This document shows positions 13-25,597 of a DNA stretch of 28,033 nucleotides, piece after piece. The DNA lies in the IMG/VR virus record IMGVR_UViG_3300022670_001834, positions 1 through 28,033 of that record; one strand, given 5' to 3'. The stretch's first letter is position 1, and each line of letters starts with the position of its first letter. This DNA is from a virus. Its lineage: Duplodnaviria; Caudoviricetes. The position numbers and the translations under genes are program-made. A model generated the notes under the pieces. It did no database searches and was not told where the DNA came from. It worked only from the letters and a program-made list of their open reading frames with translations.

Positions 13-2367
13 ATGGAACTCGAATGTGCTGGACTTGAACATCACTTGCAAAGGATTCACTTTGCCAAACAGTATTTTTTTGAAACAGCATTTTTTGTTA
101 CAAGAGATATCGGGGATATATATAACGAGAACAGGGGAACGCTTAATCCCGAACTGGAAGATCATGATTCCAATACAAGTTCAGGAGGAGGTAACGATCT
201 TCCTATTTTTACTTCCAATGATTACGATTTCAATATCTCTGAAACCTTTTGCTATACTGGACTTGATGATGTCGTCAACAGATTAGGAAACTCTGTTGCA
301 GGAGAGGGTGCCAATGATTTTTTTGAATTGTTTTTTGTTCGTGGTTCTGCCGATGATAAGATTGCCTTCCGTGCCTTTTCATCAGGAGTAAATCCGGGAG
401 CAGGGAATGAATTAACAATCAGTGATGCCGATGTCGATAACGAAGATCCTTCCGAAGCAGGACTTGAATCAACGACTGGAACTTTGTTAGGAGCTTGGGG
501 AGCTGACGCACTCGGTAGCCTTCCCCCTGAATTTTCCGTCTTTGCAAGTCAAGTAATTGCCTTTGAGCTTGCTGCGATCCATATCCTTAACGAAGCTTAT
601 CCTGCTGATGCTAAGGTTCGAGTCGGCACGGCAATTTTCCGAACTCCTATTGCTACGGTTTCAAACCCACCTGCTGCACCTTGGACTCAAATAGAAGTTC
701 GTGATATTTTAGGACCGACAGCTCAATACTCTCCTTGGACTGATACGTTAAACAATGAATGGATTAACTCTGGTGCTAATCCCGACCCTACGGTTCATGG
801 TACTCAAGAGAATTTCAACGAACGTGCCTGTTGGGATTCTAATCTTGTAGTTATAGATGCCGAAAAATTCAGGAGTTGGGCTGATGTGAGATCGACTACT
901 GATAACTTTGATGTGAATTACAAATACGGAATGGTATCAGGAGGATCATATCGTGGCTTGAGGGCATTAGTAGATGGAACTGGAACTGGATTATTCTCTG
1001 CTTTTACAGATGCCCTAGTAGAGTTTGACGGTTTTGCTTGGCAATTAAAACACCAATTCATTGAGGGAACTGCACCTGATATCTTCGGTATTGCCGATAC
1101 TGCCGAAGTATGTGCTGTAATTTCAGAGGAAAAGAATTACGAGTTTAAGATTGGCAAGATTTGGACAGATGTTTCAGGGGAGAACTTGAAAAATGATTGC
1201 TTCCATCAATATACTGGAATTAGTAATGATGCTGGATATGTCTCAACAATAAAATCGGTTGGACCAGTTACAACTTATGGCGATACTTCTGCCATCTCTG
1301 TTCAATATGTTTGGACACCTATCGTTGGCGTTCTCGGCACAGTTGTCGCAGGCGATACTCCCAATTATTATAAAGCAGGATGCTGGCTTAATTTCCGATT
1401 ACCGTTTCCACATTCAACTCATAATGGAGTATCGCAGATAGGAACATTTTATGGAAACAATCTGGTAACAAAAGAACCTGCGACCCTAGACATTAACAAT
1501 ATGCACTTGACCCATTCAGGATTTCGTGGATTCAATAATGTCGAAGCCGAAGATTTAGGACCATTAAGCCATGTTAATTTTAATGCTAGATTCTTTTGGA
1601 CTCATACATCTACTGGAGCTATTGTTGCAGAGGGAGATTTCAAGTTCAGATGTATCTTATATGATACCGAGGATGATGTATTAGTTGCTGATTTTACAAT
1701 CCCAATTAACAATATTTGGCATCCAGTAAGCTTGCCGATAACAAGCTTCAAAATTTATCGTGGTAGGAATCCTTTAGGCTTTGGACAAATCGGACAAACA
1801 TTAGTGGTAACCGAACTAGATGTTACTCAAAGATTCAGGTATCGAAATTTCAAACAAGTTTGTATTCAATGGCAGGAATCCTATGACTCCGAAGGGAGAT
1901 ACGATGGAGCAGGGTCAAGGGCTAACACAGTTACTTTTTTCACCAATGGTGGATCAGCATTATTATTTATCGACGGATTCCATTTTGGAAAACCAATGAT
2001 GACTACTACTGCTGTTACTCAAGGAGTGGTAACAGGTAGGGTATTAGAACCCCCTTTCCAACAATTACCTTTCATATCAAACATGATCCAGTTAAGGCAA
2101 GCCAATGATTCACAGTTGGAGATTGAAAATTTCAGACATAAACAATATGACATAAGGACAGATGGTATTATCAATATTGACTATGGAGAATCATTCTTTT
2201 TACAAAAAGATTTCCTTGTTTCAGAAAACGATCCTGATACAGATGGAAACCCTGCTATCAATAATATCAAACTCGTTGCCAAAAAAATAATCTACAAAGT
2301 TACAAAACCTCACAATAGTCCGGGAAAATTTGAACGAATCATTACAGGAGTTAAGAGGTTTATCTAA
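13..2367 (+). CDS. Putative tail/baseplate structural protein (784 aa; true start may lie upstream of the window)
   Basis: Long, acidic, G/T/N/aromatic-rich beta-type ORF directly upstream of, and overlapping (TAATG) with, the fibre-like gene. No catalytic motif recognised. Confidence 0.55.
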   Translation: MELECAGLEHHLQRIHFAKQYFFETAFFVTRDIGDIYNENRGTLNPELEDHDSNTSSGGGNDLPIFTSNDYDFNISETFCYTGLDDVVNRLGNSVAGEGANDFFELFFVRGSADDKIAFRAFSSGVNPGAGNELTISDADVDNEDPSEAGLESTTGTLLGAWGADALGSLPPEFSVFASQVIAFELAAIHILNEAYPADAKVRVGTAIFRTPIATVSNPPAAPWTQIEVRDILGPTAQYSPWTDTLNNEWINSGANPDPTVHGTQENFNERACWDSNLVVIDAEKFRSWADVRSTTDNFDVNYKYGMVSGGSYRGLRALVDGTGTGLFSAFTDALVEFDGFAWQLKHQFIEGTAPDIFGIADTAEVCAVISEEKNYEFKIGKIWTDVSGENLKNDCFHQYTGISNDAGYVSTIKSVGPVTTYGDTSAISVQYVWTPIVGVLGTVVAGDTPNYYKAGCWLNFRLPFPHSTHNGVSQIGTFYGNNLVTKEPATLDINNMHLTHSGFRGFNNVEAEDLGPLSHVNFNARFFWTHTSTGAIVAEGDFKFRCILYDTEDDVLVADFTIPINNIWHPVSLPITSFKIYRGRNPLGFGQIGQTLVVTELDVTQRFRYRNFKQVCIQWQESYDSEGRYDGAGSRANTVTFFTNGGSALLFIDGFHFGKPMMTTTAVTQGVVTGRVLEPPFQQLPFISNMIQLRQANDSQLEIENFRHKQYDIRTDGIINIDYGESFFLQKDFLVSENDPDTDGNPAINNIKLVAKKIIYKVTKPHNSPGKFERIITGVKRFI

Positions 2368-4169
2368 TGGTAGGTAGCAAGCCACAAGAACGCAAATCCT
2401 TCGGGAAAAGGGTAATAGATCAGGAAAAAACCGATATCGACCTATATGGATTGATTCGGGCAAAGATATCATCGCCTCAACAGATTACTGTACCGTTTAG
2501 TGGTGGTGGTTCGGCGACAACTATTCAAGGAGCAGGTTCAGGATTTTTGAGGAAAGAGGGGGATATTATGATGGGACCTCTCGCCTTCAACCCAATACCA
2601 TTAACTGTTCTAAGCGATACGATTTCAGTTGATAAAGTTACAGGAGTTTATTCGCCGAGATTAATCCTTTTAGGTGAAGGTGCAGCACCAGATGATCTTT
2701 CAACAATAAGCGGTCAGATGTTTCCGGGACAGATTCTAAACCTTCAAGCAGTTGTAACTACTCCAATCACTCTCAAAGATGGAGTGGGAAATATCCTTAC
2801 CAGAACAGGAGGGGATATTGTTATTGGAGATGGGCAAAACATTCTGCTAATCTTTGATACTATTTCAGGAAACTGGACACCGTTAGACTCTGCTGCATTT
2901 GGAAGTGCAGCAACTGGTTGTCCTGTAATCTGTACGGAAAATGATTTAGGAAATGTTAGTGGGGTTACTGATCTTGATTGGAGTATTGCAAACTTTCATA
3001 GAGCTGTCCTAGTTGGAGATACAACATTCAATATCATCAACACTCCTGCAAACGCATTATGGCAGGATATTTGTCTCGAAGTTCAGCAGGATTTAGTCGG
3101 AGGGCATCTTGTCAGTTTTGTTCAAGGCTTTGCTAATAATTTTATTCCAGTGGCAATTTTGGGAGCATTACGATATACATCATTCCAAATCTATACTTAC
3201 GAGGAACCAAGTGGCACGGATATCTTTCAAGGTTTTAACAAGAATGGCAATAATGGACCTCAAGTTCCGGGAGGAGCAGGACTGTTTCAAGGGTTTGCAG
3301 GATTTATTCAAACTGTATTATCCTCTGACCAAACAACAAATATTGGAATAAATGATCACATCGAGTTTGATACTATTGTTGATAGCGATACGCTTACTGT
3401 TACAGTAGGAGCTGGACAAGCTAGAGGAATTTTTTCAGGATTTCGTCCCGGTCATACTTACGAATGTGAAGTCTATATCTCTGGTGAAGGATCAACTAAC
3501 GCATTAAACTGGTCTGCTCAATGGTTCGATATAGGAGGAAATGGATTCATTGGCACAGAGGGCGAACAAATAGCTAACACAGGAGTTACTAATCGTGACT
3601 CTCAATTTGTGGGTAAAGCATTTTTCAGAAGCATAAGTCTAGCTGATACCCTAGAAGTGAGAATTACCAATAGTACCGTCTTAACTTCTATCTTAAATGG
3701 CTCTAGTTCAACAGAACCTACTACATTCGTAACTATCAAGGATTGTGGAGTGATTGAATCGGTGATTAATCAACCAGAACCAGCACCAGAGGACGGTGAG
3801 CTTGATATTCGTGAATTTATTTACCAAGAGTGTAGTACGGAAACATCTGCAAAAAGATTCGGCACTTTCCAAGACACCGTATCCTTTTCGAATGTTAGTT
3901 TTATTGGTGATCCAATAATCCGAAATATGAGAATCAAAGCAATCCTAATCAATGTTTCAAATAAAGGAGCTGGTGATAGGATATTTAATGTAGAAGCTGA
4001 TGGAGTTCAACGAGGACCAGCATTTACAATTCCGGGAGGATTTACTGGAGTCATTGAATTTGCACCTGTAGATATTGGTCTTGACAAATCAGAGTTAATA
4101 GGATGGTCTAGTCAAGGAGGAGCAAGTGGCGATAGATGGTCAATGACTTGCGTAGTGTGGTATTTGTAA
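2367..4169 (+). CDS. Tail fibre / receptor-binding protein
   Basis: Modules typical of phage fibres: 'GEGAAPDDLSTISG..GQILNLQ..ITLKDGVGNI', 'DLGNVSGVTDLDWSIANFHRAVLVGDTTFNIINTP..LEVQQD..GG' and a C1q/BclA-like segment 'SSDQTTNIGINDHIEFDT..GIFS'. Gly-rich linkers. Confidence 0.65.
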   Translation: MVGSKPQERKSFGKRVIDQEKTDIDLYGLIRAKISSPQQITVPFSGGGSATTIQGAGSGFLRKEGDIMMGPLAFNPIPLTVLSDTISVDKVTGVYSPRLILLGEGAAPDDLSTISGQMFPGQILNLQAVVTTPITLKDGVGNILTRTGGDIVIGDGQNILLIFDTISGNWTPLDSAAFGSAATGCPVICTENDLGNVSGVTDLDWSIANFHRAVLVGDTTFNIINTPANALWQDICLEVQQDLVGGHLVSFVQGFANNFIPVAILGALRYTSFQIYTYEEPSGTDIFQGFNKNGNNGPQVPGGAGLFQGFAGFIQTVLSSDQTTNIGINDHIEFDTIVDSDTLTVTVGAGQARGIFSGFRPGHTYECEVYISGEGSTNALNWSAQWFDIGGNGFIGTEGEQIANTGVTNRDSQFVGKAFFRSISLADTLEVRITNSTVLTSILNGSSSTEPTTFVTIKDCGVIESVINQPEPAPEDGELDIREFIYQECSTETSAKRFGTFQDTVSFSNVSFIGDPIIRNMRIKAILINVSNKGAGDRIFNVEADGVQRGPAFTIPGGFTGVIEFAPVDIGLDKSELIGWSSQGGASGDRWSMTCVVWYL

Positions 4170-4170
4170 A

Positions 4171-4617
4171 ATGGTTCAGCTAGCTGTATGGAGACCACCT
4201 TTGAATATTGCCACTTCGGGCAACGATATTTACATTACTCCTAGATGGACTGATGGACGAGAAACAGATTTTGGAGGACAACCACCAAATAATATCGAGT
4301 GGGTTTGGCCTTTCCCGTTTGGTGGTGGAGGAGGATCTTTTTGGAAAGGTTTTAGGATTATTATATATTCACAGCAAGGTAATGGAACTGCAACCATGAG
4401 CCGAAGTGTTAATGGAATTGATGTTGGAACTACATTGACATTAACGAATAATCAACCCCCTGCTGTGCCGACAGTTTTTCTCGATCTTGTAGATGTAGAA
4501 ATTAACAAGTTTGACAAACTTTCAATCAGAATCAACAATAACTTTACGGGTTCAACAATTCCCAAAGTAAATTTCATAAGCTTTTTTGAATTTCCCGATG
4601 GGTTTTGGGGATTTTAA
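4171..4617 (+). CDS. Small beta-sandwich virion protein, probably tail-tip associated
   Basis: Starts 1 nt after the fibre gene stop. Beta-strand pattern resembles the C-terminal domain of 2367-4169. Confidence 0.5.
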   Translation: MVQLAVWRPPLNIATSGNDIYITPRWTDGRETDFGGQPPNNIEWVWPFPFGGGGGSFWKGFRIIIYSQQGNGTATMSRSVNGIDVGTTLTLTNNQPPAVPTVFLDLVDVEINKFDKLSIRINNNFTGSTIPKVNFISFFEFPDGFWGF

Positions 4618-5052
4618 ATGACGATCCTAAAATCTATGGGAACGTGGTGCGTTCAAGGAGAAACCAGTCTTATTGGTACTGGAGGATTGGTTCCTGTTCA
4701 ACAATTTGTTACGGTTCAAGCAAGAGATAATGTTAATCCAGCTCCCGGTCAAGCCAAAAATGAAGTTCAACCGTTAGAAGCTGTCCTTTTGTATTGGGCA
4801 ATTCGCCTGACTGTAAATGCTGGTAGCTCTATTCCTGATCCATTCATTACATTTAGTCTCTTGCGAAATAGCACGACAACCCTCGCAACGATTGACTTTC
4901 CCCCTCAAACAGTAGGCACAAAAGCTCAACTTTTGAACATTCCGATTTTTGTCAATGAGCATTTTAATTTCAAGATTCAGCAATTTGGTTCAGGAAATAC
5001 ATTCTTTACTTGGATGGCAGCGGGAAAATTGTCTGCTCCCCCAGTTCCTTAA
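4618..5052 (+). CDS. Small beta-sandwich virion protein, probable paralog of 4171-4617
   Basis: Abuts the previous stop (TAA ATG). Similar length and strand pattern (..IRLTVN..FSLLRN..TIDFP..TVG..IPIF..FNFKI). Confidence 0.5.
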   Translation: MTILKSMGTWCVQGETSLIGTGGLVPVQQFVTVQARDNVNPAPGQAKNEVQPLEAVLLYWAIRLTVNAGSSIPDPFITFSLLRNSTTTLATIDFPPQTVGTKAQLLNIPIFVNEHFNFKIQQFGSGNTFFTWMAAGKLSAPPVP

Positions 5053-5083
5053 TCCTTATTACCTTGAAGTATTCACTCCTGCT

Positions 5084-5371
5084 ATGTCTCAAAAAGTTAC
5101 AATGACTATCTCCAAAGAACAATTCAACCAGAACCTACGAAACTCTAAGGATCGGATTAGTGCTGCAAAGGGTCAGTTCTCTGACCAGTTAAGCGATACC
5201 ATCACAAGAGAGTACGGTGCAATAATGATGATGGCAAACCAAGCCCTTGACATGCTTGATGATAAGGAAAAAAAGATTGCCGAGCTTCAACAGCAATTAT
5301 CAGATGTTGCAAAGGGAAAAGTTGTAAAGCTTCAGGAGAATTTGTCAAAGCAGGTTAAACCTCAAAAGTAA
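5084..5371 (+). CDS. Coiled-coil hypothetical protein (95 aa)
   Basis: ATG at 5084 is in frame with the 4949 ORF and avoids overlap with 4618-5052. CCTTATTA box 30 nt upstream. Heptad-like 'KEKKIAELQQQLSDV'. Confidence 0.6.
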   Translation: MSQKVTMTISKEQFNQNLRNSKDRISAAKGQFSDQLSDTITREYGAIMMMANQALDMLDDKEKKIAELQQQLSDVAKGKVVKLQENLSKQVKPQK

Positions 5372-5428
5372 AATAGACTGATCACTTAGTCAAATCAATG
5401 CGACAGCGTACAGCATTAGTATTAGGAG

Positions 5429-5824
5429 GTGAATATTTTAGCAATTTGTAGAAACTGCTCACAAGAGATAGCATGGCCTAAACCTTATCGAACTGGCAAC
5501 AAACCAATTAACAAAGATGGAACTGCTCATAACTGTCTAGAAGGAGGAAAAGATAACGACCCAACACAGCAACAATTTAACCCTGATCAACCTCAAGTGG
5601 CTCAAACCCAACAAAGCACAATACATGAGTCAAATTCCAAATCAATGTCAAAGTTAGATGTGAAGTTCGAGGAAATCGACAAGCTTGACCAGATGTTGTT
5701 TGATGTATCAATCAACCGACTTGAAGCAATCAAAAAACAGTTTGGAATCGACATGGTTCCAATAAATGAAGCATTGATCTTTGTAGAGTCTTGGAGCAGA
5801 ACATTAGCTCAAACTCTCAAATAA
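5429..5824 (+). CDS. Zn-binding hypothetical protein (N-terminal CxxC...HxC, Q-rich linker, helical C-terminus)
   Basis: CRNC..W..P..DGTAHNC motif. GTG start directly preceded by AGGAG. Confidence 0.6.
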   Translation: MNILAICRNCSQEIAWPKPYRTGNKPINKDGTAHNCLEGGKDNDPTQQQFNPDQPQVAQTQQSTIHESNSKSMSKLDVKFEEIDKLDQMLFDVSINRLEAIKKQFGIDMVPINEALIFVESWSRTLAQTLK

Positions 5825-5913
5825 TCGGACTGAATCAGGATAGAAATATCAATGCTAATGCAAAAGTCTAGGTGTGAACATTACACCTTTGCTTTAGCCT
5901 TCACTCTTCAAAA

Positions 5914-5930
5914 CCCTCTTATTTTTTTTT
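5914..5930 (+). terminator. Archaeal-type oligo-T terminator
   Basis: CCCTCTTATTTTTTTTT. The same C-run + T-run pattern follows four other genes. Confidence 0.55.
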
Positions 5931-5945
5931 AACTATTTTCTAAGT

Positions 5946-6416
5946 ATGGGGAATATAACCAACAAACGTAGTTACGTCGCTAGGGCATATCGTGAGGATG
6001 ATACTGAAAAGGATATCATGCTCAAATGGAAACTAATCAAGAACCTAAAAATCAAATTTGGCATATATGCACGAACAGGACCTAAGATCGCTATTCATCG
6101 CAAATATGGATATATCAAGCAGAATCTCGCAAAGCATGAAATCAAGGACTTTTACCTACATGATCCTGATGTAACTGCACTCAAAAACAATCCTCCCCTG
6201 ATTTTTGAGATTGATGGTGATATCCATTTCCTTAAGGATAGGGTCGTTAAAAGGACAAACTCGCGTAACGAGCATTATGAACAGGCAATCATCAACGGCA
6301 AGCACCTTAAGTTAATCTGGTTGACTGATACAGAGGTAAAAAATTCTGATGAGATGCTAAGCTTAATTGTATCTCAAAAATTAAGAGACCAGAATATTAA
6401 ATTTAATCAAGCGTAG
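5946..6416 (+). CDS. PD-(D/E)xK endonuclease, DUF559/Vsr-like
   Basis: 'HDPDV..IFEIDGDIH..RTNSRNEHYE..LKLIWL' matches the PD..ExDG..H..R..(V/I) layout of DUF559/Vsr nucleases. Confidence 0.65.
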   Translation: MGNITNKRSYVARAYREDDTEKDIMLKWKLIKNLKIKFGIYARTGPKIAIHRKYGYIKQNLAKHEIKDFYLHDPDVTALKNNPPLIFEIDGDIHFLKDRVVKRTNSRNEHYEQAIINGKHLKLIWLTDTEVKNSDEMLSLIVSQKLRDQNIKFNQA

Positions 6417-6474
6417 AATCAATCACACCCATAGTTTAGGATTTTTACCGAACAGGCTTTTCCTTTGATAGCGT

Positions 6475-6651
6475 GAGAGTGTGAGAGATATACGCGACAA
6501 GACCATTTAGCGAATCGGATCGCAACTCATGGCTTGGGTAGAACTTGCCATCGAGTGAGTGATAAAACTAACAGGCTTTTATGTTTTTATGAAAAGATGA
6601 ATGGGGAACAAAAAACGATAAGAGTTATTATCTCTTATCTCTCACTCTCTC
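6475..6651. repeat. 16-bp imperfect inverted repeat (6475-6490 / 6636-6651), plus 11-bp direct repeat AACAGGCTTTT (6451-6461, 6570-6580)
   Basis: GAGAGTGTGAGAGATA versus TATCTCTCACTCTCTC: 15 of 16 positions complementary. Confidence 0.7.
6621..6632 (+). promoter_or_regulatory. Putative archaeal BRE/TATA promoter (early class)
   Basis: AGAGTTATTATC begins 33 nt upstream of ATG 6654. Same spacing as AGAGTAATATAA at 9451. Confidence 0.5.
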
Positions 6652-6653
6652 CA

Positions 6654-6911
6654 ATGCAGAAAAATTCGCAAAGATCAGCGACGGATATCCGTATCTGGAA
6701 TTTTAGAAAAATTCTAAAAACCAACAAGTTCACTACCGATGAAGTAATGAGGAAGTTTTTGAAATGTTCAAGGGCGACATATCAAAGAGAACTTTCCGAT
6801 TATACAAGTTCAGTATCAGGAGTAATCCATGATGTGAACTTTCATCTCATCGGCTACGAATCAGATATTGATAACGCCATCGCTAAGTTCGAGAAGGAAA
6901 AAAATGGCTAG
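6654..6911 (+). CDS. Small basic putative HTH DNA-binding protein
   Basis: In-frame ATG 6654 fits the promoter spacing better than TTG 6534. 'DEVMRKFLKCSRATYQREL' is HTH-like. Confidence 0.5.
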   Translation: MQKNSQRSATDIRIWNFRKILKTNKFTTDEVMRKFLKCSRATYQRELSDYTSSVSGVIHDVNFHLIGYESDIDNAIAKFEKEKNG

Positions 6912-7047
6912 ACCACTCAAAAACCCAGATGGACTTTATACCAAAAAATACATTGTTGAAAACGGTTACAAATGTCCAAAATGTGATGTTGTAGAAGCAT
7001 CAAAAAAATGGCTACGAGATCATATCAAGGAGAAGCATGCGTATTGA
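6904..7047 (+). CDS. C2H2 zinc-finger microprotein (47 aa; not in ORF track)
   Basis: MARPLKNPDGLYTKKYIVENGYKCPKCDVVEASKKWLRDHIKEKHAY: C-x2-C-x12-H-x4-H. Overlaps both neighbours by a few nt. Confidence 0.75.
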   Translation: MARPLKNPDGLYTKKYIVENGYKCPKCDVVEASKKWLRDHIKEKHAY

Positions 7048-7433
7048 GTCTTAACGAAACCTCGCCGAGATACCGACTCAATGCCACTCAATCATCAAAC
7101 AACATATGGACTTTCAATGCAACTGGGGAAGATAAGGACATTCATGTAAGAATGTCAAACGACCCAGAGGATGAAGGAAAAGTTGCTCATGAACCACTCG
7201 GTCTTAAAGTCCTCACTATGATAAAGGAAGCTGAGGATATTTGGAGAGATGATGGAAGATTAGTCGCATCAGACCCACAACAGGTACCTACAACCCCTCC
7301 TAAATCGTACCAGAAAAGCAGAAAAGCAGATTGGTATAAACAAAAACTCGAGTTTCATACCTCGATTATTGTTGCCCTCACTACCAATTCAAAGGCAGAG
7401 TTAGGACTAGACTTGACAAGTCATAAGTCTTAA
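7044..7433 (+). CDS. Hypothetical protein
   Basis: Same frame as ORF 7008-7433. TTG at 7044 overlaps the upstream TGA (TTGA coupling). Confidence 0.55.
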   Translation: MSLNETSPRYRLNATQSSNNIWTFNATGEDKDIHVRMSNDPEDEGKVAHEPLGLKVLTMIKEAEDIWRDDGRLVASDPQQVPTTPPKSYQKSRKADWYKQKLEFHTSIIVALTTNSKAELGLDLTSHKS

Positions 7434-7444
7434 TTATGCCATAT

Positions 7445-7456
7445 CCCTTTTTTTTT
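7445..7456 (+). terminator. Oligo-T terminator within a hairpin loop
   Basis: CCC-T9 directly after the 7433 stop. Confidence 0.5.
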
Positions 7457-7479
7457 CTGATGGGCAGGGGTATGGAATT

Positions 7480-8052
7480 TTGAAAGTAGATAAGTTCCCA
7501 ATGACCCAATTGTCAAGTATTTCTGTCCATCACTTATCTATTATTGAGAAAAATGATTTTTGGGAAACCCCGACTGATATGTTATTCAAAGCGATGCTTG
7601 ACTATGACATCAATCCTCAACTAGATGTCTGCACTACCAAATCTATTGCCAAACGTCAGAAATTCTATAAATTTTTTACAAAAGAATCCTCGGGATTGAA
7701 AAAGGAATGGAAAGTTAATTTTTACATGAACCCTCCTTATTCACAAATTGGTTCATGGATGAATCACTGCTACGAACAAATCAAAAAGCACGAAGTCGAG
7801 GGATTGATTCTCACCTATGCAAAGACAGATACTAAATGGTGGCACATGTTCGTTGAAGGCAATTCCGATGTCGAGGTTCACTTTGTAGAGGGTAGGGTAA
7901 AGTTCCTAAAAAATGGAAAGATTCCGACTTGGTGTAAAATATGTAAAAAAAACTATCAGGGCATAAAGATTTGTCCTAAATGTAATGGCAAGACATCGGA
8001 GAATGTGGCACCTTATCCTTCTGTATGGTTAGTTTTTAGGAGACCATCATGA
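7480..8052 (+). CDS. Phage-type DNA N6-adenine methyltransferase (Dam_phage family) with Zn-ribbon insertion
   Basis: NDFWETP, LDVC, catalytic MNPPYS, 'AKTDTKWWH', 'GRVKF', 'APYPSVWLVF'. Inserted CKIC-x9-CPKC. Confidence 0.85.
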   Translation: MKVDKFPMTQLSSISVHHLSIIEKNDFWETPTDMLFKAMLDYDINPQLDVCTTKSIAKRQKFYKFFTKESSGLKKEWKVNFYMNPPYSQIGSWMNHCYEQIKKHEVEGLILTYAKTDTKWWHMFVEGNSDVEVHFVEGRVKFLKNGKIPTWCKICKKNYQGIKICPKCNGKTSENVAPYPSVWLVFRRPS

Positions 8053-8456: not shown

Positions 8457-8511
8457 ACATCATCCATTACGAGTTAAATTATAGTATGGGAATTAAATCA
8501 AATTGGGCAAA

Positions 8512-8652: not shown

Positions 8653-8653
8653 T

Positions 8654-9246: not shown

Positions 9247-9249
9247 ATA

Positions 9250-9448: not shown

Positions 9449-9450
9449 AC

Positions 9451-16149: not shown

Positions 16150-17902
16150 AGTAATCAAAGATAAGTTTGGGATATCAGTTCCTGATCTTCCTATCCTTGA
16201 TTCTAATACATTGAGATGGATTGAGCAATCACGACCAATCATCGGGAACATTCACCGTAACTTTGATCTGACTCCATTCTATTATGAAATTTACGAGGAC
16301 AATCATCCTAACATTATGATCGTAGCAGGTCGTCAAACCTATAAGACAACCTTTTGCACAGATAAGTTAGTCCATGGAGCAACAAGCAAACCCAGATCAG
16401 AAATCTGTTACGTTACCGATACAGAGTCCCATCTATCAGCCTTTAGTAAGCAACGACTTCGTATCGAAACATTCCTACAAAACCCTGAACTTAGACAATA
16501 CCTACGACATGATCGTGGTAACATTGGAGAAATTTCACTGGGGAATGACTCAACTATCTACTTGGTTACCGATGAAGGAGAATACAAAAAGGTAGAGGGG
16601 AAATCGCTTCAAGTCTTGATGCTAGATGAGGCACAGTATCAAGATGTGCAGTTCCTCGCCAAAGCAATGTATTCTCTTTTCCAAACTCATGGTCAGCTTT
16701 ACGTTCTAGGAATTGGTGGCGAAGCTGGATCAGAGTATTATAAAATGTGGCATAGGACTGACCAGAGGGAATGGATTTATGATGATAAGTTTTGGCATGA
16801 AAAAATTAAACGAGATGCCAACGGTCAAATAATTAACGAACAAAATGAAATCAAAACAATTCTCGCTGGGCATTGGGTTGCTCAAAAGCCTGAAAACCAT
16901 CAGTTTAGAGGGTATCATTTACCACAACATATCTTTCCAATTATTCCAAGAACTATTAGACAAGCCCAACTTCATAACATCAATCCTGAATTTTCCCTTG
17001 AGTATCAAGAACGATACTCACCCTCCAGTTACTATTCATCACATTGTCTTGGAGATTTCTACAAAGCAGAACGTCGTCCAATTACACCTGAAATGGTCGA
17101 GAATTGCTACAATAGGTATCTAACACTTTTAACCTCTGAGGAGGTCAGACAACTGAAAGATATCTATGGAAAAGAGATTCGCGTACTCATGGGAGTTGAC
17201 TTTGGATCAGGACCATCGGCATCAAAAACAGTTGCAACTATCATTATTCATTGGAGAAAACCAAACAGATTTCAGATTGTTTGGATTGATCAACGACCAC
17301 AAGAGCATGGCTACGATCAAACAAGATACATCGCCGAACTTGGTGAAGCATACAATATCGACTATGGAGTTGGTGATCTAGGATATGGTCAGGACAGGGT
17401 CAAGGGAATCCAAGATGGAGGACGAGATAGTAAAGATATCAAGTTTAAGGGCTTGGGCAAAAAACGATTCATCGGTTGCCGTACTATTGGAGATGAAACT
17501 AAACCAGAACTCAAGTTCATACAAGAGACTGACGAGCACGGAACGCAACTTGGTAGGCTCCAAATTGACAAGACTACTACTATCCAAAACTTCGTGGATA
17601 TGGTGGGACGTTATGTTGCTCATCCTACACGACCTGACGATGAACGATGGAAACGCACTCAACTCATTATTCCATTCGGAAATGAGATCGAAACCGATTA
17701 CCTCCTCAATGACTTTGTATCAATAACTAGGAAGGATTTAGAAAAGGATCCTGATATCTCAAAGGAAGATCCAAGACAGCGAGCTAAAAAGGAATTTAAT
17801 CATCCCCCCGATACTGTGATGTCAATCATTTATGCCCTAGTTGCTGAGGCAAACTACAATCCTGATAGATATAGGCTAGTTGGGACAAGGAAAAGGAAGT
17901 AA
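16094..17902 (+). CDS. terL: Terminase large subunit
   Basis: Walker A-like AGRQTYKTT, Walker B LMLDEAQ, RNase H-fold nuclease motifs MGVDFG, VGDLGYG and HPPDTVMS. Confidence 0.88.
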   Translation: MRGTRINQSIDDTWKQASEVIKDKFGISVPDLPILDSNTLRWIEQSRPIIGNIHRNFDLTPFYYEIYEDNHPNIMIVAGRQTYKTTFCTDKLVHGATSKPRSEICYVTDTESHLSAFSKQRLRIETFLQNPELRQYLRHDRGNIGEISLGNDSTIYLVTDEGEYKKVEGKSLQVLMLDEAQYQDVQFLAKAMYSLFQTHGQLYVLGIGGEAGSEYYKMWHRTDQREWIYDDKFWHEKIKRDANGQIINEQNEIKTILAGHWVAQKPENHQFRGYHLPQHIFPIIPRTIRQAQLHNINPEFSLEYQERYSPSSYYSSHCLGDFYKAERRPITPEMVENCYNRYLTLLTSEEVRQLKDIYGKEIRVLMGVDFGSGPSASKTVATIIIHWRKPNRFQIVWIDQRPQEHGYDQTRYIAELGEAYNIDYGVGDLGYGQDRVKGIQDGGRDSKDIKFKGLGKKRFIGCRTIGDETKPELKFIQETDEHGTQLGRLQIDKTTTIQNFVDMVGRYVAHPTRPDDERWKRTQLIIPFGNEIETDYLLNDFVSITRKDLEKDPDISKEDPRQRAKKEFNHPPDTVMSIIYALVAEANYNPDRYRLVGTRKRK

Positions 17903-17965
17903 GTTCTCAATAAAAATTTGGATAAAAACTAATATCCAAACTATCTACCTTTGTAATAACAAGTA

Positions 17966-18169
17966 ATGAAGTGCTTGAGTTGTGGTAAATCTTGTCGAAC
18001 CCCTAAAGCTGATAATTGGATATTATGGCAGAATTGCTACCAATGTGCTTTGAAAAATCATCCTGAGTATTATGAGCATAAACCAAAGCATGGTACTGGT
18101 GGCACTTGGATGGGAGAAATAAAATGTATTCCCATGACTACCGAAGTTATCAAAATAAAAACACTTTAA
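17966..18169 (+). CDS. Zn-finger small protein
   Basis: CLSC...CYQC. Confidence 0.6.
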   Translation: MKCLSCGKSCRTPKADNWILWQNCYQCALKNHPEYYEHKPKHGTGGTWMGEIKCIPMTTEVIKIKTL

Positions 18170-18193
18170 CCTTTTGACGATCCATGAACTACT

Positions 18194-19882
18194 ATGACGT
18201 GGGCTAATCGGTTACGTAATGGCTTGGCAAGGATCATCTCCACATCTCCAATTGTCTCGCCACGAACCCACTCTACTACAAATCTTTCCGTAATGGAAGT
18301 GAAATCCTCACTCAATAGTGATTCAGTACCATTTAGTGAAATGGTTCCTCCCGGATTAAGTCAACCAGTTTGGGGTCCTGAAATTTCAACTGTTGGAGCT
18401 TACTCAAGGGAAGGATATACTTCTAAAACTTTTGACAAACCTTTCATTCCTTTTAACACAATGGCAATAGCACTAGCATCCGATGAGGACGTATCGCTTG
18501 CCCTTAACCATTTATCATCTCAAATTACTGGAGGGGAACATTACTGGAAAGGTGAGAACGAACAGATCACCGAATACATGGAATCCTTTACAAAGATGAT
18601 TGACTTTGACGAACTCGATACAAAGATTGTAAAAGAATTACTTTGGTATGGAAATTCATTTTGGAAACCACGAATGGGTATTGCACACATTCACAGCAAG
18701 CATGATCTAATGCACATACCAATTAGTTCAGCAGTTCGTATATGGTGGGATCGTCAGAGAATACCTTACAAGTATGAGTTTAGGGGAGCAGAGTATCAAG
18801 GTTATCACAACCCTGATGAAATAATTCACTTGGCATGGAATCCAGTTAATGCTTCTGCTTATGGAATCGGTCTTGGTGTTGCCATGATGTCAGTCCATAG
18901 GTTCGAACAAATTACTGCCAATGGTCCAGAAACTAATTTACTTCCTTCATTACTTGATCGAAAATATTCTAATCAATTAACAATGCATATTACTGAACGC
19001 CGATACACTCCGAGAAATGTTTGGATAGCACCAGAAGCAGATGAGGATGAACGAGCACAGCTTGAAGCAAGACTTCAAGATTTGAAACTTGGAGAGGATA
19101 TGGTTGCAGGTTCGGACTTGAAGGTTCAAGAACTTGGATCATCACAAAGGGCGTTCAACCCTACTCAATTTACTGATACAGTTCTCGGTCCTATCATGAA
19201 GGCACTAAACGATTTCAGGGGAAAACAGGGAACTGAATCATCTCACCAATTTGCCAATGCAAAAACTTCTGCTGTCTTAGATCAAATCGGACTATCATCT
19301 TTTCCCCTTACAGTAACTAGAATGTTAATTGATAATTTGTTCAGGCCTTGGTATGATGAGAATCCAATGTATGATCAGTCTTACGGTGGGGGATTGGTTG
19401 CACTTCCTTGGGATTCCTGCAATTATGAATTAAACTTTGGACGAGTTCAGAAAAAAGATATTGACTTACAAGATCAGATTAAACTAATTGAGCTCGCCAT
19501 GTCAACTGGAGCTGTTCAAGATCCATCGGAGATTCGTTCACTTATCGAGGATGCAGGATTAGGATTAAGGGAAGAGTACGGTGCAGCATTAGAGGAACAA
19601 TACAATCCAATGAATCCAATGCCTGCAAACTTTAGTGATCCAATGAATCCAACCTTTGATGATATGGGTGGTGGTGAGATTCCAAATAACTTTTCCAATC
19701 AACGAATGGGAACCCCTCCTAATGATGATCCAATTTACAATGACATGATCCAAAATGTCAGGGGAAATAATCCTGCTACTGAAAACAATCCATTTACTCC
19801 TAATCCTTATTCAGCTCAACCGAGTGATCCAAGACTTAACTTTACAGAAACAAAAAGGAAAAAACGACATGCCACAAGATAA
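18194..19882 (+). CDS. Portal protein
   Basis: Follows terL. ELLWYGNSF, DEIIHL..N...YGIG motifs and a P/N/M-rich disordered C-terminus. Confidence 0.85.
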   Translation: MTWANRLRNGLARIISTSPIVSPRTHSTTNLSVMEVKSSLNSDSVPFSEMVPPGLSQPVWGPEISTVGAYSREGYTSKTFDKPFIPFNTMAIALASDEDVSLALNHLSSQITGGEHYWKGENEQITEYMESFTKMIDFDELDTKIVKELLWYGNSFWKPRMGIAHIHSKHDLMHIPISSAVRIWWDRQRIPYKYEFRGAEYQGYHNPDEIIHLAWNPVNASAYGIGLGVAMMSVHRFEQITANGPETNLLPSLLDRKYSNQLTMHITERRYTPRNVWIAPEADEDERAQLEARLQDLKLGEDMVAGSDLKVQELGSSQRAFNPTQFTDTVLGPIMKALNDFRGKQGTESSHQFANAKTSAVLDQIGLSSFPLTVTRMLIDNLFRPWYDENPMYDQSYGGGLVALPWDSCNYELNFGRVQKKDIDLQDQIKLIELAMSTGAVQDPSEIRSLIEDAGLGLREEYGAALEEQYNPMNPMPANFSDPMNPTFDDMGGGEIPNNFSNQRMGTPPNDDPIYNDMIQNVRGNNPATENNPFTPNPYSAQPSDPRLNFTETKRKKRHATR

Positions 19883-20282
19883 ACTCCATCGTTGCGTTGA
19901 GCAGGTAAAAGGGGAAAAGGGAGTTGATTCGGCCTATGCGATTTGTAACTCATCTATCAATGAAGCTCATAAACCATATCCATTTCCAGTAATCCCAAGC
20001 AAACAATCTGGTAGAGACCAGATGTTAAAACATAATGAACTAGAACCAGATCCAATGTTTGAAGCAGTTTGTAATGCCCTTACGCAAGAACAACATAATC
20101 CAATGGATATTATCAACTGCCCTGCTGACGATCCTGAAAGGGAAGCAGTAGCAATAGGAGGAGGACTTAGTGGCATATCAATAGGTGGCAAAAAAAAGAC
20201 AGTAGAAACTCTTTGCTCTTGTGATCAGTTTGATAATACTGTCAAGGCATTAAGGAAGGAAACTAATGCCGATAAAATCTAA
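19869..20282 (+). CDS. Head-module protein of unknown function
   Basis: ATG 19869 is in frame with ORF 19755. N-terminal 'KLHRCVEQVK..SAYAIC' motif. Confidence 0.55.
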   Translation: MPQDKLHRCVEQVKGEKGVDSAYAICNSSINEAHKPYPFPVIPSKQSGRDQMLKHNELEPDPMFEAVCNALTQEQHNPMDIINCPADDPEREAVAIGGGLSGISIGGKKKTVETLCSCDQFDNTVKALRKETNADKI

Positions 20283-22017
20283 GCTTGAACCCTTAGATTC
20301 TGAATACTCTTACAAAGAGATCAAGGAAGCATTACTCAAGGATGATATTGATAATATTCTCAACCGTTATGATTATCTAAAAAACATCGAAGGAATACCA
20401 GATCCCGAAGCTAAAAGGGCAATTACTGCTGAATTTGGAACTGATTTGGAAGTAAATCAGAATGATTGGAAACCTCCCCTTGATGTCGGTAATGGAATGG
20501 TTCCTGATCTTACAATGAAAGTTTTTGATACTGGTTATCCTCCTGTTCCTCCTTTGCCTGTCTTTGCCAATACATCGCCATTCGGCAACGATGGATTTGA
20601 TCATAAGAATCCTGATCCTCAAGGCTATGCAGGAGGTCGTGATGTCGAGAATTTATCTCAATACAAAACCAACGCACCAGAGAATTTAGTTACCAAAAGC
20701 AAACCCTATCCCTACGAAGATCAGAGTAAGGAGAATTATGTAAACAATCCTTTTGATCCCCCAAGCAATCCATCTATGCATGGAGAGCATGGGTTTAACG
20801 TAGAGAAAAGTATTCCTGAATGGAAATATCCAATCGAGGACGATCAAGGGGGAGTAGAGGAATTAATTGTTGATCGAGATAAAAAAACTGGTCAATGGGT
20901 AAAGCATGGAACAACAAAAGGAGATTTGATTACTGATCATTCACTCGCACCAATACTTGATAGGGCAAGGAAAGATTACTTACAAAGACAATGGGATGGC
21001 ACGATTGAGGAACCCTACATGGTTACTCATGAACCAAAACATGAGGATGATCCTCACGCTGTCGTTGAAGCTTTGGATCCCTATGATGAGAACGATATCT
21101 ACGCACCAATCTGGGCAAAGTATCATCTTGGACCAGCTCATAGGGATATGGACATATGTGATAAGTTCAAGGGAAAAGTTTATGATCTAACCGAGATGGA
21201 TCGACCCGTTCCTCCAAGCGAAGGTTTGGGATATACGACTACTCATCCTAATTGTCAATGCTGGTGGCAACCGATAAAAGAACCAAGTAAGACCACTATG
21301 GCAACAAAAAAACAGAGGAAAGATTTTGGAAAAATCAGAGCACATATTACCAGAAAAGCTAACAAAGGGAAACTTCATACTGTTAAGCCTGATGGGACAT
21401 TATCTAACAGAACACGATCGTCAAATCCGATGCGAGAAACAATCGAGGAAATCAGAGAACAGTTCCAATGGTTGACTGATAAGTATCTCGATAGAATCCA
21501 ATCAGTAGATGTTCCCGGAAAAATGTTTTTGATTCGAGCAAGTAATGAAGCTATTACAGATCATAGAAACGAAGGCGAACCTTTACGCAGATGGCTAAGT
21601 CCTGATGAACTTCATGGAATGGCTAGAACTGCAATAGGAAAAGGAATGGATGTGAATCATCACCCAGAATATACCACTAATGCTCAAGTTTTAGATTCAG
21701 AATATGACCGAAATAGGCACGAAATACAGATGATAATAAACGAACAAGATCCTCAAATCCTAGATGCCATAAACAAGCAGATCATTACTGCTGTTTCAAT
21801 AAATGGAGGTCAACCAAGAGATGAAAAGATTGAATGTCCTGATTGTGATAATGGAAACTGTGAGTGCTTTATCGTTCCCGAAGGTGTGGTTCTAGGAGAG
21901 CAGGATAATATTGCATTGACTTGGGTAGTTACTGATCCAAAAGGATTCAATTATCATGGAATGTTTATACCTCCTGCGACTCCCGGAGTTAAGACAACTG
22001 CCATTGAACCACTATAA
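20266..22017 (+). CDS. Prohead maturation protease fused to a MuF/SPP1-gp7-like Cys/His motif
   Basis: Central DICDKFKG..PP..HPNCQC. C-terminal 'R.LSPDEL...A...G..MDVNH...AVSING...ALTWV' fits assemblin-fold prohead proteases. Position after the portal. Confidence 0.65.
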   Translation: MPIKSKLEPLDSEYSYKEIKEALLKDDIDNILNRYDYLKNIEGIPDPEAKRAITAEFGTDLEVNQNDWKPPLDVGNGMVPDLTMKVFDTGYPPVPPLPVFANTSPFGNDGFDHKNPDPQGYAGGRDVENLSQYKTNAPENLVTKSKPYPYEDQSKENYVNNPFDPPSNPSMHGEHGFNVEKSIPEWKYPIEDDQGGVEELIVDRDKKTGQWVKHGTTKGDLITDHSLAPILDRARKDYLQRQWDGTIEEPYMVTHEPKHEDDPHAVVEALDPYDENDIYAPIWAKYHLGPAHRDMDICDKFKGKVYDLTEMDRPVPPSEGLGYTTTHPNCQCWWQPIKEPSKTTMATKKQRKDFGKIRAHITRKANKGKLHTVKPDGTLSNRTRSSNPMRETIEEIREQFQWLTDKYLDRIQSVDVPGKMFLIRASNEAITDHRNEGEPLRRWLSPDELHGMARTAIGKGMDVNHHPEYTTNAQVLDSEYDRNRHEIQMIINEQDPQILDAINKQIITAVSINGGQPRDEKIECPDCDNGNCECFIVPEGVVLGEQDNIALTWVVTDPKGFNYHGMFIPPATPGVKTTAIEPL

Positions 22018-22105
22018 TTATTGTCAATGTAAAAAACCAATTCCAATGACTGCCGATGTGGGAGACCGAAACTGTATAAGGTGCGGAATGAAAATGGAAT
22101 ATTGA
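22004..22105 (+). CDS. Zn-binding microprotein (33 aa)
   Basis: MNHYNYCQCKKPIPMTADVGDRNCIRCGMKMEY. TTGA coupling to the next ORF. Confidence 0.5.
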   Translation: MNHYNYCQCKKPIPMTADVGDRNCIRCGMKMEY

Positions 22106-22431
22106 GGGCTAGATGTGTGAATATCCAAATAGCACCGGCTGTTGATTTTAGTCATTTGATGCCCTCAAATTACTTAGAATTTTGTTTGAAGTTCTTTAAC
22201 AAAATTTACACAATACAGCAACGAGGGATTTATTCCCACTCCGAAGTATCTAATTTAATGAGAGAAGTCGAAAATGTCCTAGATAAGATTAAAGATAAAA
22301 ATGATACTCAAAAATTACTCGATTGGTATCATCGGGAATTTAATCCTCAATATCAGCTCACATGGCTACGATATACATTTCATCAACACTTGAAAAGAGC
22401 TGGCAAAGATCCCCTCAAAACACTTGTATAG
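22102..22431 (+). CDS. Hypothetical helical protein
   Basis: Same frame as ORF 22081. Start uncertain. Confidence 0.5.
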   Translation: MRARCVNIQIAPAVDFSHLMPSNYLEFCLKFFNKIYTIQQRGIYSHSEVSNLMREVENVLDKIKDKNDTQKLLDWYHREFNPQYQLTWLRYTFHQHLKRAGKDPLKTLV

Positions 22432-22432
22432 T
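22417..22432 (+). promoter_or_regulatory. Late promoter motif AAAACACTTGTATAGT (copy 1)
   Basis: Exact 16-mer repeated three times. Here CACTT begins 31 nt before ATG 22452. Confidence 0.75.
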
Positions 22433-22451
22433 TTTAGTTCACACAAAACCC

Positions 22452-22775
22452 ATGAGTCAATTATACGAAAGGGCTAAAGCTCTTGGAACATTTGCTCAAA
22501 ATGTTAAATGGTTCACTCCTGATTATGTCCCCGTCGCAGGCACTTCTAGGGCATCAGATTTAATTGTTCAAATAAATTCATCGACTTCCGTTATAGTAGA
22601 AGTTACTGTCAATGGAGGTTCTACATTTAATCCAATTAATTCAGGTAATGCCATACCAGTAGGTTTTTCTCAGTTTGATATTTTTGCAACAAAGGAAGAT
22701 CAAGTTAATCTTCGAACTACTGATCCAGCAGGAATTTCAGTTGATTGTAGATTAATCAATGATCTAACAGCGTGA
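22452..22775 (+). CDS. Small beta-rich virion protein
   Basis: ATG 22452 fits the promoter spacing. Jelly-roll-like strand pattern. Confidence 0.55.
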   Translation: MSQLYERAKALGTFAQNVKWFTPDYVPVAGTSRASDLIVQINSSTSVIVEVTVNGGSTFNPINSGNAIPVGFSQFDIFATKEDQVNLRTTDPAGISVDCRLINDLTA

Positions 22776-22780
22776 TCTAA

Positions 22781-25597
22781 ATGGCTAGATTCCCAGCACA
22801 AGGTTCAGGAACAGGAGGAGGAGCAGGAACAGGTCATGTTATCCAAGATGAAGGAACTGGATTACCTAACCAACCAATTTTAGATTTTACAGGCAACGCT
22901 GTTGTAGCATCTGATGGAACTGGAAAAACTCTTGTAGATATTAATAGATACATTATAAAAAATCAAATTGGAGCAATTTTACCTGCAATCGGTGAACCTC
23001 CAACAATAACATTTGGTGGTGGTTTAGTAGGATTAAACGACGAAGGAGGCACTCTGATCACTGGTGAGGAACCTCATATAATAAAAGATGAGGGTCTTTC
23101 ATTACCTGATCAACCAAGTCTTAATTTTGTAGGTAATGGAGTTGTTGCAAGCGATGGTCCCGGAAATAATACAACTGTTACAATTCCCGGAACCGAACCG
23201 ATAAATCTCGATAAACTATTTGAAACTACAACTACTTCGCTTGTTAATACCATTACAGCTTTACTAGCTTCACCTGTCAATGTAATTGATTATTCAGAAT
23301 TTTGGTTGATTGTAACTGGTTCATTAGATGCTCAAGGCGACATATTTGCTCAAATAAACAATTTTACATCATCAGAATATTCAACTTTATTTACTCGAGT
23401 TAATTCAACGCCAACTTCTGTCGCTGTCTCTAATACTGGAGCTGGTGCATGGGTTCTTAATAATTCCCCTAATGCCGAGCAACTTCTCATAAACTCTCAA
23501 ATCTATTCTAAGCTTGTATTTCAAGGTGGAACTGGAGGAGTTGTAAATCGTCATAACGGCACAATACATTCAACATATCAAGGGTCGGGAGTTGGAAATA
23601 CAAAGTCAGTATTGGATGGAGGTATAGAATTAGATGATACAACAACGACTCTAAATCAATTTGTAGTTAAAACTGATGGAGTGTCTAACTTCAATATCGG
23701 AACTAAAGTTTCAGTCTATGGCGTAAAAACTGCTGGTGGAACTACTGGGGGAACTTCTACAGCGACTGGGTTAGTTGTAGAAACATTATTCAAAACTACT
23801 CTAACAACTCCAAAGATCACCTTTGATGCAATAGTTTCTCCTGCTGTGCTGTTTGCAGATTATACTGAATTTTGGTTAGTAATCAATGGAGGCATGAACG
23901 CTGATGCTGATTTGTTCGTCCAAATTAATGACATCACGACCACGAACTACAATGCAGCCTATAATTTCCTTGACGGATTAGCTAGCACTCAAGCTTTCGA
24001 ACAAGAGTCTGCTCAAAGTTCATGGAGAATTAATACCACAACAAAAGTAATTAATGAACGAACTAATTTCTATTCTAAGTTAATCATTCAAGGTGGTGCA
24101 AGAGTACCTACAGAAGATGATGCTCTTTATGGTTCCATTTATTCATCATTTAGTGACCCAACGCCACTTCCTGCTGTAACTGGAGCTCAAATAATTAAAC
24201 AAGGAGGCATTAGATTAGACACATTTACCGACACAATCTTATCCAAATTTAGAATTTTTTCGACTGGTTCTGATGCGATGCAAACAGGAACGTCTATTGC
24301 AATCTATGGTGTAAAGCCAGTCGGAGCAGGTGCAGGTAGCACAGTCGCATCAGGAGGAGGCAATTATGTATTAATAGGATCTGCAATCGCTGATGGTTCA
24401 AGTCCGATTTTAAGAGCAACTTTTGCTGGCGAAACATTAGATGGAACTAAAAATGCAAAATTCGTGGCAATCTCTACAACCGAATTAGTAGGCGGTTCTG
24501 CTTCTGGTGATATTGGTTACAGAGTTAATCAGGTTGGTGTTTTACCAACAAATTCTCCTTATGCCACAAACGGATCTAGATTAAGCTCAGCAACCTATGA
24601 CCCATTCACAAATAGTAATGCAATAGAATGGAAAACTGGATTCTTTGACGGTGAAAAGGATGCTTTCAGTATAGTTGAATTTTCAGGAACGTATGGGGGA
24701 GATGGTGAAACTGGTGGTTTAACTGGTTTCGTTAGAGAATCATTGTCTGCTGAAAGCCGAGAATTTATGACAGCTGGAATCACATTTTCAGGCGATCCCC
24801 CTTTCGTGCTATCTCCTTTAACTTCGTTTGAGCTGGTAAATGTAGCTAGTGAGCCAGTCAATTTTGTAGCTGGTTCTCGACTTGATGTGTATAAGGTTGT
24901 TGTAGCTGAAGGGGGAGGGATTGCTGGTCATGTTATCCAAGACGAAGGCGTTGATCTAACTCAAGAACCCACTCTTGATTTTGTTGGTGATGGTGTAACA
25001 GTAACCGATGGATTAGACAAAACGATTGTAACAATTCCCGGAGGTGGTGGTGGAGCTGGTCTTGTAGAGAAATTATTTGATACAACAATAGTAACTCCTG
25101 TTGGTACGATTACAGCGACAATATCTCCTTCTGTCAATGTTGTTGACTATGCTGAATTTTGGCTAATTGCAACTGGTTCGCTATCAGCGACAGACGATAT
25201 ATTCACACAGATTAATAATTTTACAAGTTCATCTTATCAAAATCTTTTTAATCGAATCACAGGTGGAATTTTAGGTCAGGCTCCCTTTGAGGATAATGGA
25301 TCAGCAGGTTGGCAATTAAATAATACTGTTATTGGACCAAACGAAAGTGTTCTACTAAATACTCAATTCTATATGAAACTTGTATTTCAAGGCGGTGCAG
25401 CAGTTGGTTCACGACATAGAGGATCAATTAGCTCAACGTATGCTGGTTCAGTAGCTGGTAGTGATCCTTCATCAATTACGGGTCATATAGCATTGTTCGG
25501 AAGCATTACAACTCTAGACCAATTTGTAATTTTTACTCAAGGTGCAGCCAATTTCAATGCTGGAACTCAAATTACTGTCTATGGCGTAAAGATCTAG
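22781..25597 (+). CDS. Repeat-built fibre/decoration protein (938 aa)
   Basis: Three 'H(V/I)I(Q/K)DEG..L...P.L.F.G..V...DG' repeats, three clear ~170-aa domains ending in YGVK plus one diverged domain, and Gly-rich hinges. Confidence 0.65.
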   Translation: MARFPAQGSGTGGGAGTGHVIQDEGTGLPNQPILDFTGNAVVASDGTGKTLVDINRYIIKNQIGAILPAIGEPPTITFGGGLVGLNDEGGTLITGEEPHIIKDEGLSLPDQPSLNFVGNGVVASDGPGNNTTVTIPGTEPINLDKLFETTTTSLVNTITALLASPVNVIDYSEFWLIVTGSLDAQGDIFAQINNFTSSEYSTLFTRVNSTPTSVAVSNTGAGAWVLNNSPNAEQLLINSQIYSKLVFQGGTGGVVNRHNGTIHSTYQGSGVGNTKSVLDGGIELDDTTTTLNQFVVKTDGVSNFNIGTKVSVYGVKTAGGTTGGTSTATGLVVETLFKTTLTTPKITFDAIVSPAVLFADYTEFWLVINGGMNADADLFVQINDITTTNYNAAYNFLDGLASTQAFEQESAQSSWRINTTTKVINERTNFYSKLIIQGGARVPTEDDALYGSIYSSFSDPTPLPAVTGAQIIKQGGIRLDTFTDTILSKFRIFSTGSDAMQTGTSIAIYGVKPVGAGAGSTVASGGGNYVLIGSAIADGSSPILRATFAGETLDGTKNAKFVAISTTELVGGSASGDIGYRVNQVGVLPTNSPYATNGSRLSSATYDPFTNSNAIEWKTGFFDGEKDAFSIVEFSGTYGGDGETGGLTGFVRESLSAESREFMTAGITFSGDPPFVLSPLTSFELVNVASEPVNFVAGSRLDVYKVVVAEGGGIAGHVIQDEGVDLTQEPTLDFVGDGVTVTDGLDKTIVTIPGGGGGAGLVEKLFDTTIVTPVGTITATISPSVNVVDYAEFWLIATGSLSATDDIFTQINNFTSSSYQNLFNRITGGILGQAPFEDNGSAGWQLNNTVIGPNESVLLNTQFYMKLVFQGGAAVGSRHRGSISSTYAGSVAGSDPSSITGHIALFGSITTLDQFVIFTQGAANFNAGTQITVYGVKI

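Follow-up and report, generated by a model that had tools for sequence, protein, structure and literature searches.

A viral genome fragment probably linked to Nitrosopumilaceae is purged of CCWGG and of numerous further restriction-type words

The word CCWGG is completely absent from the viral DNA analysed here, a stretch of 28,033 nt hereafter called the window. CCWGG is one among many purged words and nothing special among them. We consider avoidance of restriction sites under diverse, strain-variable host systems to be the most probable explanation, and give it a probability of about 85%.

1..28033, no strand: viral genome fragment purged of CCWGG and many restriction-type words throughout (word counts, codon shuffles)

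The initial annotation, made by eye from the sequence, noticed neither CCAGG nor CCTGG, and the exact count in the window is indeed 0 for both. A maximal-order Markov model gives 36.9 expected CCWGG and none are observed, the z of -7.8 being the lowest among all 5-mers. Within ORFs (35 ORFs comprising 26,091 nt constitute the codon-shuffle set), 24.6 occurrences are expected from 1000 synonymous-codon shuffles (shuffle minimum 12) and 25.2 when the shuffles also preserve dinucleotides (minimum 16). The occurrence of CCWGG at near its expected frequency had been named as evidence against selection; the count is 0 against 24.6-25.2. By hand calculation, about 12 of the roughly 24 expected CCWGG would arise from Pro-Gly, and since about half are expected outside these pairs, the absence also holds in other frames. 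Codon shuffles were preferred because a Markov model alone masks absences nested within depleted shorter words, e.g., the expectation for AAGAAA is 8 by the Markov model and 35 by codon shuffling. An assembly artefact was dismissed, as near-identical contigs from run X2 of a second study cover almost all of positions 10001-28033 with few differences (among the matches listed).

The codons used for proline in front of glycine are relevant for understanding this absence.

within 394..25042, plus strand: 15 in-frame Pro-Gly pairs, the sole CCSGG sites of the window, all with CCC or CCG for Pro (exact counts)
394, 2320, 2724, 3267, 3447, 4032, 4744, 10027, 13876, 18350, 21514, 21982, 23159, 23186, 25037, plus strand: starts of these Pro-Gly pairs
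4032..4037, plus strand: Pro-Gly pair with a variant third base of Pro (position 4034), C replacing G in a single run X6 contig (depth 5.9)

All 15 Pro-Gly pairs in ORFs are encoded by CCC-GG or CCG-GG, as first described (CCC 10, CCG 5, CCT 0, CCA 0), while CCT and CCA make up 329 of the 419 Pro codons overall, in agreement with the earlier remark that proline elsewhere is mostly CCT or CCA. Five of the eight example coordinates given for these pairs were correct and three were off by one, the proper starts being 2724, 4032, and 21514. The chance of finding no CCT or CCA at 15 Pro-Gly pairs is (90/419)^15, or about 1e-10 (by hand). CCSGG is found 15 times in the whole window, at positions coinciding exactly with the 15 Pro-Gly pairs; it survives solely where Pro-Gly forces it. 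The proposal that CCSGG is tolerated has to be corrected, as this is not free tolerance: outside Pro-Gly there are 0 CCSGG vs about 5 expected and 3 CCGG vs about 31 (both by hand, from codon-shuffle expectations of 8.0 CCSGG and 34.6 CCGG, with about 3.2 coming from Pro-Gly). The pairs themselves are scarce, 15 being present vs about 31 calculated by hand from the window's own residue frequencies (419 x 643 / 8697). The G to C change at 4034 stays within the S class, one isolated case consistent with ongoing constraint.

Counting 4-6-mers against a codon-aware model, the check proposed in the initial annotation, confirmed the depletion of CCWGG but not its uniqueness: 338 6-letter words (both strands) are absent from coding DNA vs 52 +/- 10 in 300 shuffles (maximum 86). 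From the 617 distinct sites of the Biopython restriction catalogue, the 416 with an expectation of at least 6 were taken into the test. The observed/expected ratio (O/E) is at most 0.25 for 31 of the 416 catalogued sites vs 24 of 1026 controls made by permuting their letters (Fisher p 1.4e-5), with a median of 0.95 over the 416 sites. Many of the 31 depleted sites are nested in one another, so they do not represent 31 independent systems. CCWGG itself is the site of 10 catalogued enzymes and belongs to the orthodox Type II sites.

Fully absent sites (observed/expected): HhaI 0/18, DraI 0/14.5, EcoRI 0/11, AccI 0/12.5, BbsI 0/10
Near-absent sites (observed/expected): ClaI 1/15, BsmI 1/11, BsrDI 1/12
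Depleted sites (observed/expected): AciI 6/46, HaeIII 5/28, TspRI 6/31, BspCNI 9/39

Full purging also affects AAGAAR (0/51) and another purine-rich hexamer (0/19), neither of which matches any of the 617 catalogued sites, and several fully purged words are non-palindromic and lack a catalogued Type II enzyme. HinfI and EcoRV sites show no avoidance. GATC (129/140.5) and AGCT (88/86.4) are spared as well, which we attribute to their being the persistent orphan-methylase sites of Nitrososphaerota described in passages of PMC10609329. Shielding of the surviving sites by GATC methylation was considered and can be at most partial: as judged by inspection, GATC is overlapped by 8 of 20 MboII-type, the single ClaI-type, 1 of 8 TspRI-type, and 1 of 15 GTGGA survivors.

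16094..17902, plus strand: terminase large subunit; places the virus and is the basis for the host group

Matches to terminase and head-morphogenesis genes identify the window as a fragment of a dsDNA head-tail virus, and it belongs to a virus record (G000). Among viral contigs, 43 relatives of the terminase were found (40-74% identity), and all eight loci confirmed in GTDB lie in Nitrososphaerota genomes, mostly of Nitrosopumilaceae (42-56% identity). This placement of the terminase relatives makes Nitrosopumilaceae, a family of ammonia-oxidising archaea, the likely hosts. A DNA search for the host in 401 family genomes gave short weak matches in 37, mostly to terminase, portal or que genes; the window has no tRNA or Rfam match, and no C5 methylase was found in the five genomes holding terminase relatives, all of them incomplete or of unknown completeness. 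At least half of the sampled words are present in five runs of two studies, labelled marine sediment metagenome, one of which may be the source; runs X7 and X8, which hold small shares, were excluded from this habitat call.

A run X2 contig extends about 1.9 kb beyond position 28033 (among the matches listed), so the window covers part of a genome; a gene for the major capsid protein was not recognised in it. Another feature of run X2 is a cluster of about 10 differences at 20682-20701 in one contig, inside a head-morphogenesis gene, which may be a recombination patch. The 938-aa Gly/Thr-rich protein encoded at 22781-25597 (plus strand) has internal repeated segments and no family match and is likely a virion surface protein. 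It is followed among the virion genes by an APS kinase-sulfotransferase domain fusion (25599-26543, plus strand) which may sulfate a virion or host-surface component. A tiny ORF of about 31 codons at 8159-8254 (plus strand) has a C2H2-type zinc-finger pattern, and positions 8157-8231 are matched alone by other contigs with unrelated flanks (among the matches listed), indicating a shared module.

The codon-shuffle comparison covered 21 viral sequences, of which five were complete or almost complete records and 16 were drawn from the 43 loci, together with eight loci from host genomes. CCWGG is absent from 11 of the 21 viral sequences (six of them with an expectation of at least 7) and kept in 10, while none of the eight loci inside host genomes lacks it. 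In the Markov analysis, CCWGG is missing from 25 of 43 viral terminase loci, many of these being near-duplicates. Relatives of similar GC content differ in CCWGG in an all-or-none manner. The related viruses G008, G009, and G010 (L076-L081) have the mirror pattern, with CCWGG kept and CCSGG zero; G008 and G010 are also devoid of any CCGG. The provirus record G006 (L072-L073; 87% complete) retains both CCWGG and CCSGG. It lacks 535 hexamers vs 37 expected, a purge stronger than that of the window and composed of a different word set. AAGAAR is also zero in G007, L012, L013, and L017. No fetched relative has a tblastn match to the que genes or transglycosylase described below, so broad purging occurs without this cluster, at least in G006.

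In samples of host chromosomes, the O/E of CCWGG is 0.87 for 11 genomes with an MvaI-family match and 0.80 for 20 others, and the other purged words are also kept (e.g., AAGAAR with an O/E of about 1.05). The depletion of CCWGG is therefore virus-specific and not a shared host compositional bias. Together with the count of 0 vs 24.6-25.2, retention by host chromosomes supports the initial suggestion of selection against CCWGG via host restriction. Hosts with MvaI-like genes show no extra avoidance of CCWGG in their own chromosomes, so genome composition cannot confirm the target of these enzymes. Patchy exposure to restriction predicts all-or-none, lineage-specific, and virus-only loss, as found here.

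Candidate enzymes for CCWGG restriction are encoded in the host family. Among 251 Nitrosopumilaceae genomes, PF15515 (MvaI/BcnI) has matches in 16 and PF09019 (EcoRII-C) in three, two of them above the cut-off. The EcoRII/Dcm-like host system first proposed has a few candidate genes, but the commoner candidate is of the MvaI-like/m4C type (16 vs 3 of 251); the suggested search for such systems in candidate hosts has found candidates at the family level. In nine loci (L052-L058, L063, L065), the nuclease match adjoins a methylase with an N4/N6-type catalytic motif, and the methylases next to MvaI-like genes are probably m4C-specific. This arrangement resembles the MvaI system (CCWGG, N4-methylcytosine; PDB 2oa9), in which, according to PMC3001055, CCWGG is cut and m4C blocks cleavage. 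The products of L052, L053, and L054 score closer to MvaI than to BcnI. BcnI reads the central C:G pair with histidines 77 and 219, as described in part of PMC3089477; direct alignment of L052 to BcnI places Thr and Gly at these positions, where MvaI has Thr and Ala, so the host-family enzymes appear MvaI-like and not BcnI-like at the two centre-reading positions. The C-terminal recognition segment of L052 is common to nine of 13 aligned proteins. Unlike that of MvaI, the specificity of the host-family enzymes is predicted from sequence, and they are present in a minority of genomes and tied to the family rather than to the virus's own host.

L064, L066, and L067 encode Dcm-like C5 methylases paired with other nucleases; the L067 nuclease is equally close to Ecl18kI and PspGI, pointing to CCNGG or CCWGG. 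An MvaI-like enzyme with its m4C methylase is the likeliest CCWGG cutter, and a Dcm-linked PspGI/Ecl18kI-like enzyme is the alternative, both with predicted specificity. The host locus L064 (394-2635) has a tandem of a methylase of Dcm type, a nuclease distantly related to the MvaI family, and a gene that by eye looks like Vsr. C5 methylases occur in 59 of 251 family genomes. N4/N6 methylases were detected in 148 of 151 genomes, and 14 of the 151 have at least 11 matches. The methylase tallies and the 401-genome DNA search include genomes flagged as unpublished, and no single claim rests on these. A family genome with a GC content of 0.37 (G054) has two MvaI-family, five C5-methylase, and 11 N4/N6-methylase matches; this is the kind of host that could impose such a purge, which is not a host assignment. 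Restriction systems are enriched in some Nitrosopumilaceae, as passages of PMC6790972 state for sponge symbionts.

The virus also encodes putative DNA modification functions.

7501..8052, plus strand: N6-adenine DNA methyltransferase, phage-type, PF05869
10477..12709, plus strand: queD, queE, queC, and folE, predicted preQ0 synthesis
12690..13451, plus strand: TGT-fold transglycosylase, likely DpdA-like (phrog_887, E 3e-37)

The TGT-fold gene has matches in 229 phage records and scores 17 with the NCBIfam DpdA model (NF041059; cut-off 200). A DpdA-like product would likely insert a 7-deazaguanine base into DNA. Directly after this gene, 13444-14295 (plus strand) codes for a fusion of a ParB-like N-terminal domain with a purine phosphoribosyltransferase domain; its product could feed or salvage the deazaguanine pathway. 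That folE, queD, queE, and queC cluster with a TGT-fold gene is shared with phages 9g, CAjan, Vid5, and MED16 (passages of PMC6884629, PMC6266253, and PMC8306585); unlike in these phages, the modification is here predicted from the genes. Phages with the same deazaguanine base differ in protection, according to part of PMC6884629. EcoRII is described as being resisted by Vid5 DNA but not by MED16 DNA, so protection of CCWGG by preQ0 is not predictable. DraI, HhaI, RsaI, and MfeI sites, which are cut in Vid5, are depleted in the window, whereas the protected EcoRV and MboI sites are not; EcoRII and ClaI sites are purged although protected in Vid5, and concordance with deazaguanine protection is therefore mixed. 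Avoidance in modifying phages is usually far lower (2.4% vs 55.8%, in a passage of PMC6286503). The que cluster, too, contains none of the fully purged words, which suggests a residence long enough for purging to have taken place.

Under restriction-site avoidance, viral DNA that enters a cell unmarked by the host's methylation would suffer cleavage at every site, variants free of sites would replicate more often, and long selection could empty the genome of sites, most of them being removed by synonymous changes. The CCNGG frame being unavoidable at Pro-Gly, the rare CCC and CCG codons would be taken there as the lesser cost, in line with no CCNGG being kept elsewhere and with Pro-Gly pairs at about half their expected number. 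That the purge is so broad is likely due to encounters with many strain-variable systems over time, or to a host lineage in which such systems abound.

Part of the purge, above all the non-palindromic words, might instead be driven by other sequence-specific defence: Type IV systems acting on methylation from a previous host, BREX-like, or Type IIG/III systems. The lack of catalogued Type II enzymes for several such words and the many methylases of host-family genomes speak for this, but GATC and AGCT are methylated across nearly the whole class and yet not avoided here, CCWGG has direct endonuclease candidates in the host family, and sites of Type I, IIG, III, and IV systems show little avoidance in passages of PMC6286503, so we regard it as rather improbable. 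The mild depletion of CG and TA dinucleotides could hint at a bias of this AT-rich genome in codons, dinucleotides or composition, or at an artefact. This reading is refuted by the dinucleotide-preserving codon null, which still gives 25.2; moreover, rare Pro codons are chosen solely before Gly, an independent assembly agrees, and relatives of similar GC differ all-or-none, leaving it a practically negligible probability.

5946..6416, plus strand: predicted nuclease, 156 aa, Vsr-like/I-Bth0305I-like fold (structure model)

The virus might also avoid the target of this nuclease, as the initial annotation proposed. The protein has a conserved PD...ExD core, and its predicted structure (pLDDT 81) suggests a Vsr-like fold; E. 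coli Vsr acts at Dcm sites. The best match of the model is the I-Bth0305I catalytic domain (Z 9.4, rmsd 3.9, 97 aligned), and the match to Vsr (Z 8.8, rmsd 6.8, 119 aligned) is tied with those to I-Bth0305I, a RAP-type chain, and NGO0050; Foldseek returned nothing at E <= 0.001. G006 carries a homolog (37% identity over 103 residues) and yet has normal CCWGG (39 vs 38 expected), while the fetched CCWGG-free relatives, which are fragments, have no match to the nuclease. No homologs were found in 201 host-family genomes, nor any C5 methylase among the 35 ORFs scanned in the window, an incomplete genome. Repair of the Vsr type would bring CCWGG back rather than eliminate it, and so many unrelated words are beyond the reach of one nuclease. 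The nuclease is thus likely not the cause of the purge, and self-avoidance is very unlikely. Deamination of host 5-methylcytosine at CCWGG, with decay of the word by mutation, was another early suggestion, to which the Dcm-like C5 methylases of L064, L066, and L067 and the presence of some C5 methylase in 59 of 251 family genomes lend substance. However, the change at Pro-Gly is central, from W to S, and synonymous, whereas deamination would alter C or G and the amino acid; host chromosomes, though permanently methylated, keep CCWGG; the commoner candidate methylases are of N4/N6 type; and A/T-only and purine-rich words are purged too. We find deamination scarcely plausible.

Restriction-site avoidance is established for prokaryotic viruses with dsDNA genomes (Rusinov et al., 2018; passages of PMC6286503). 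The mechanism is known, and the window is a strong case of this known escape strategy, broader than CCWGG. It resembles the viruses in those passages in that orthodox Type II sites are lost entirely or almost entirely, to far below composition-aware expectation, and differs in that many sites are lost at once, several of them non-palindromic, that DNA-modification genes are encoded, and that the host group is a predicted one. The archaeal head-tail haloviruses of the HF1 group (passages of PMC7230728) likewise have a broad purge of restriction words, with 21 six-base palindromes absent group-wide, and most carry an N6 methylase gene, as here. They belong to a different host group and lack GATC and CTAG, both of which are near expectation in the window; the passages on HF1 mention no preQ0 cluster, unlike the window. 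Our literature search found no report of site avoidance in viruses of ammonia-oxidising archaea, a point on which supplementary per-virus tables may bear.

Viruses of ammonia-oxidising archaea appear to face strong and varied restriction, while their hosts have been described mainly as carriers of orphan methylases. Purging can persist despite encoded preQ0 and m6A genes, against the published trend. We tentatively speculate, with well under even confidence, that the set of words purged in this clade mirrors the restriction repertoire found in uncultured Nitrosopumilaceae, among it non-palindromic specificities that are uncatalogued, such as AAGAAR. If so, AAGAAR-like words would be targets of new enzymes or of a non-classical defence unaffected by 7-deazaguanine. 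From the all-or-none patterns, methylation motifs of the hosts can be predicted in a testable way, in some cases for words that no catalogued enzyme recognises; such predictions may be useful for virus-host matching and for DNA design in the genetics of these archaea.
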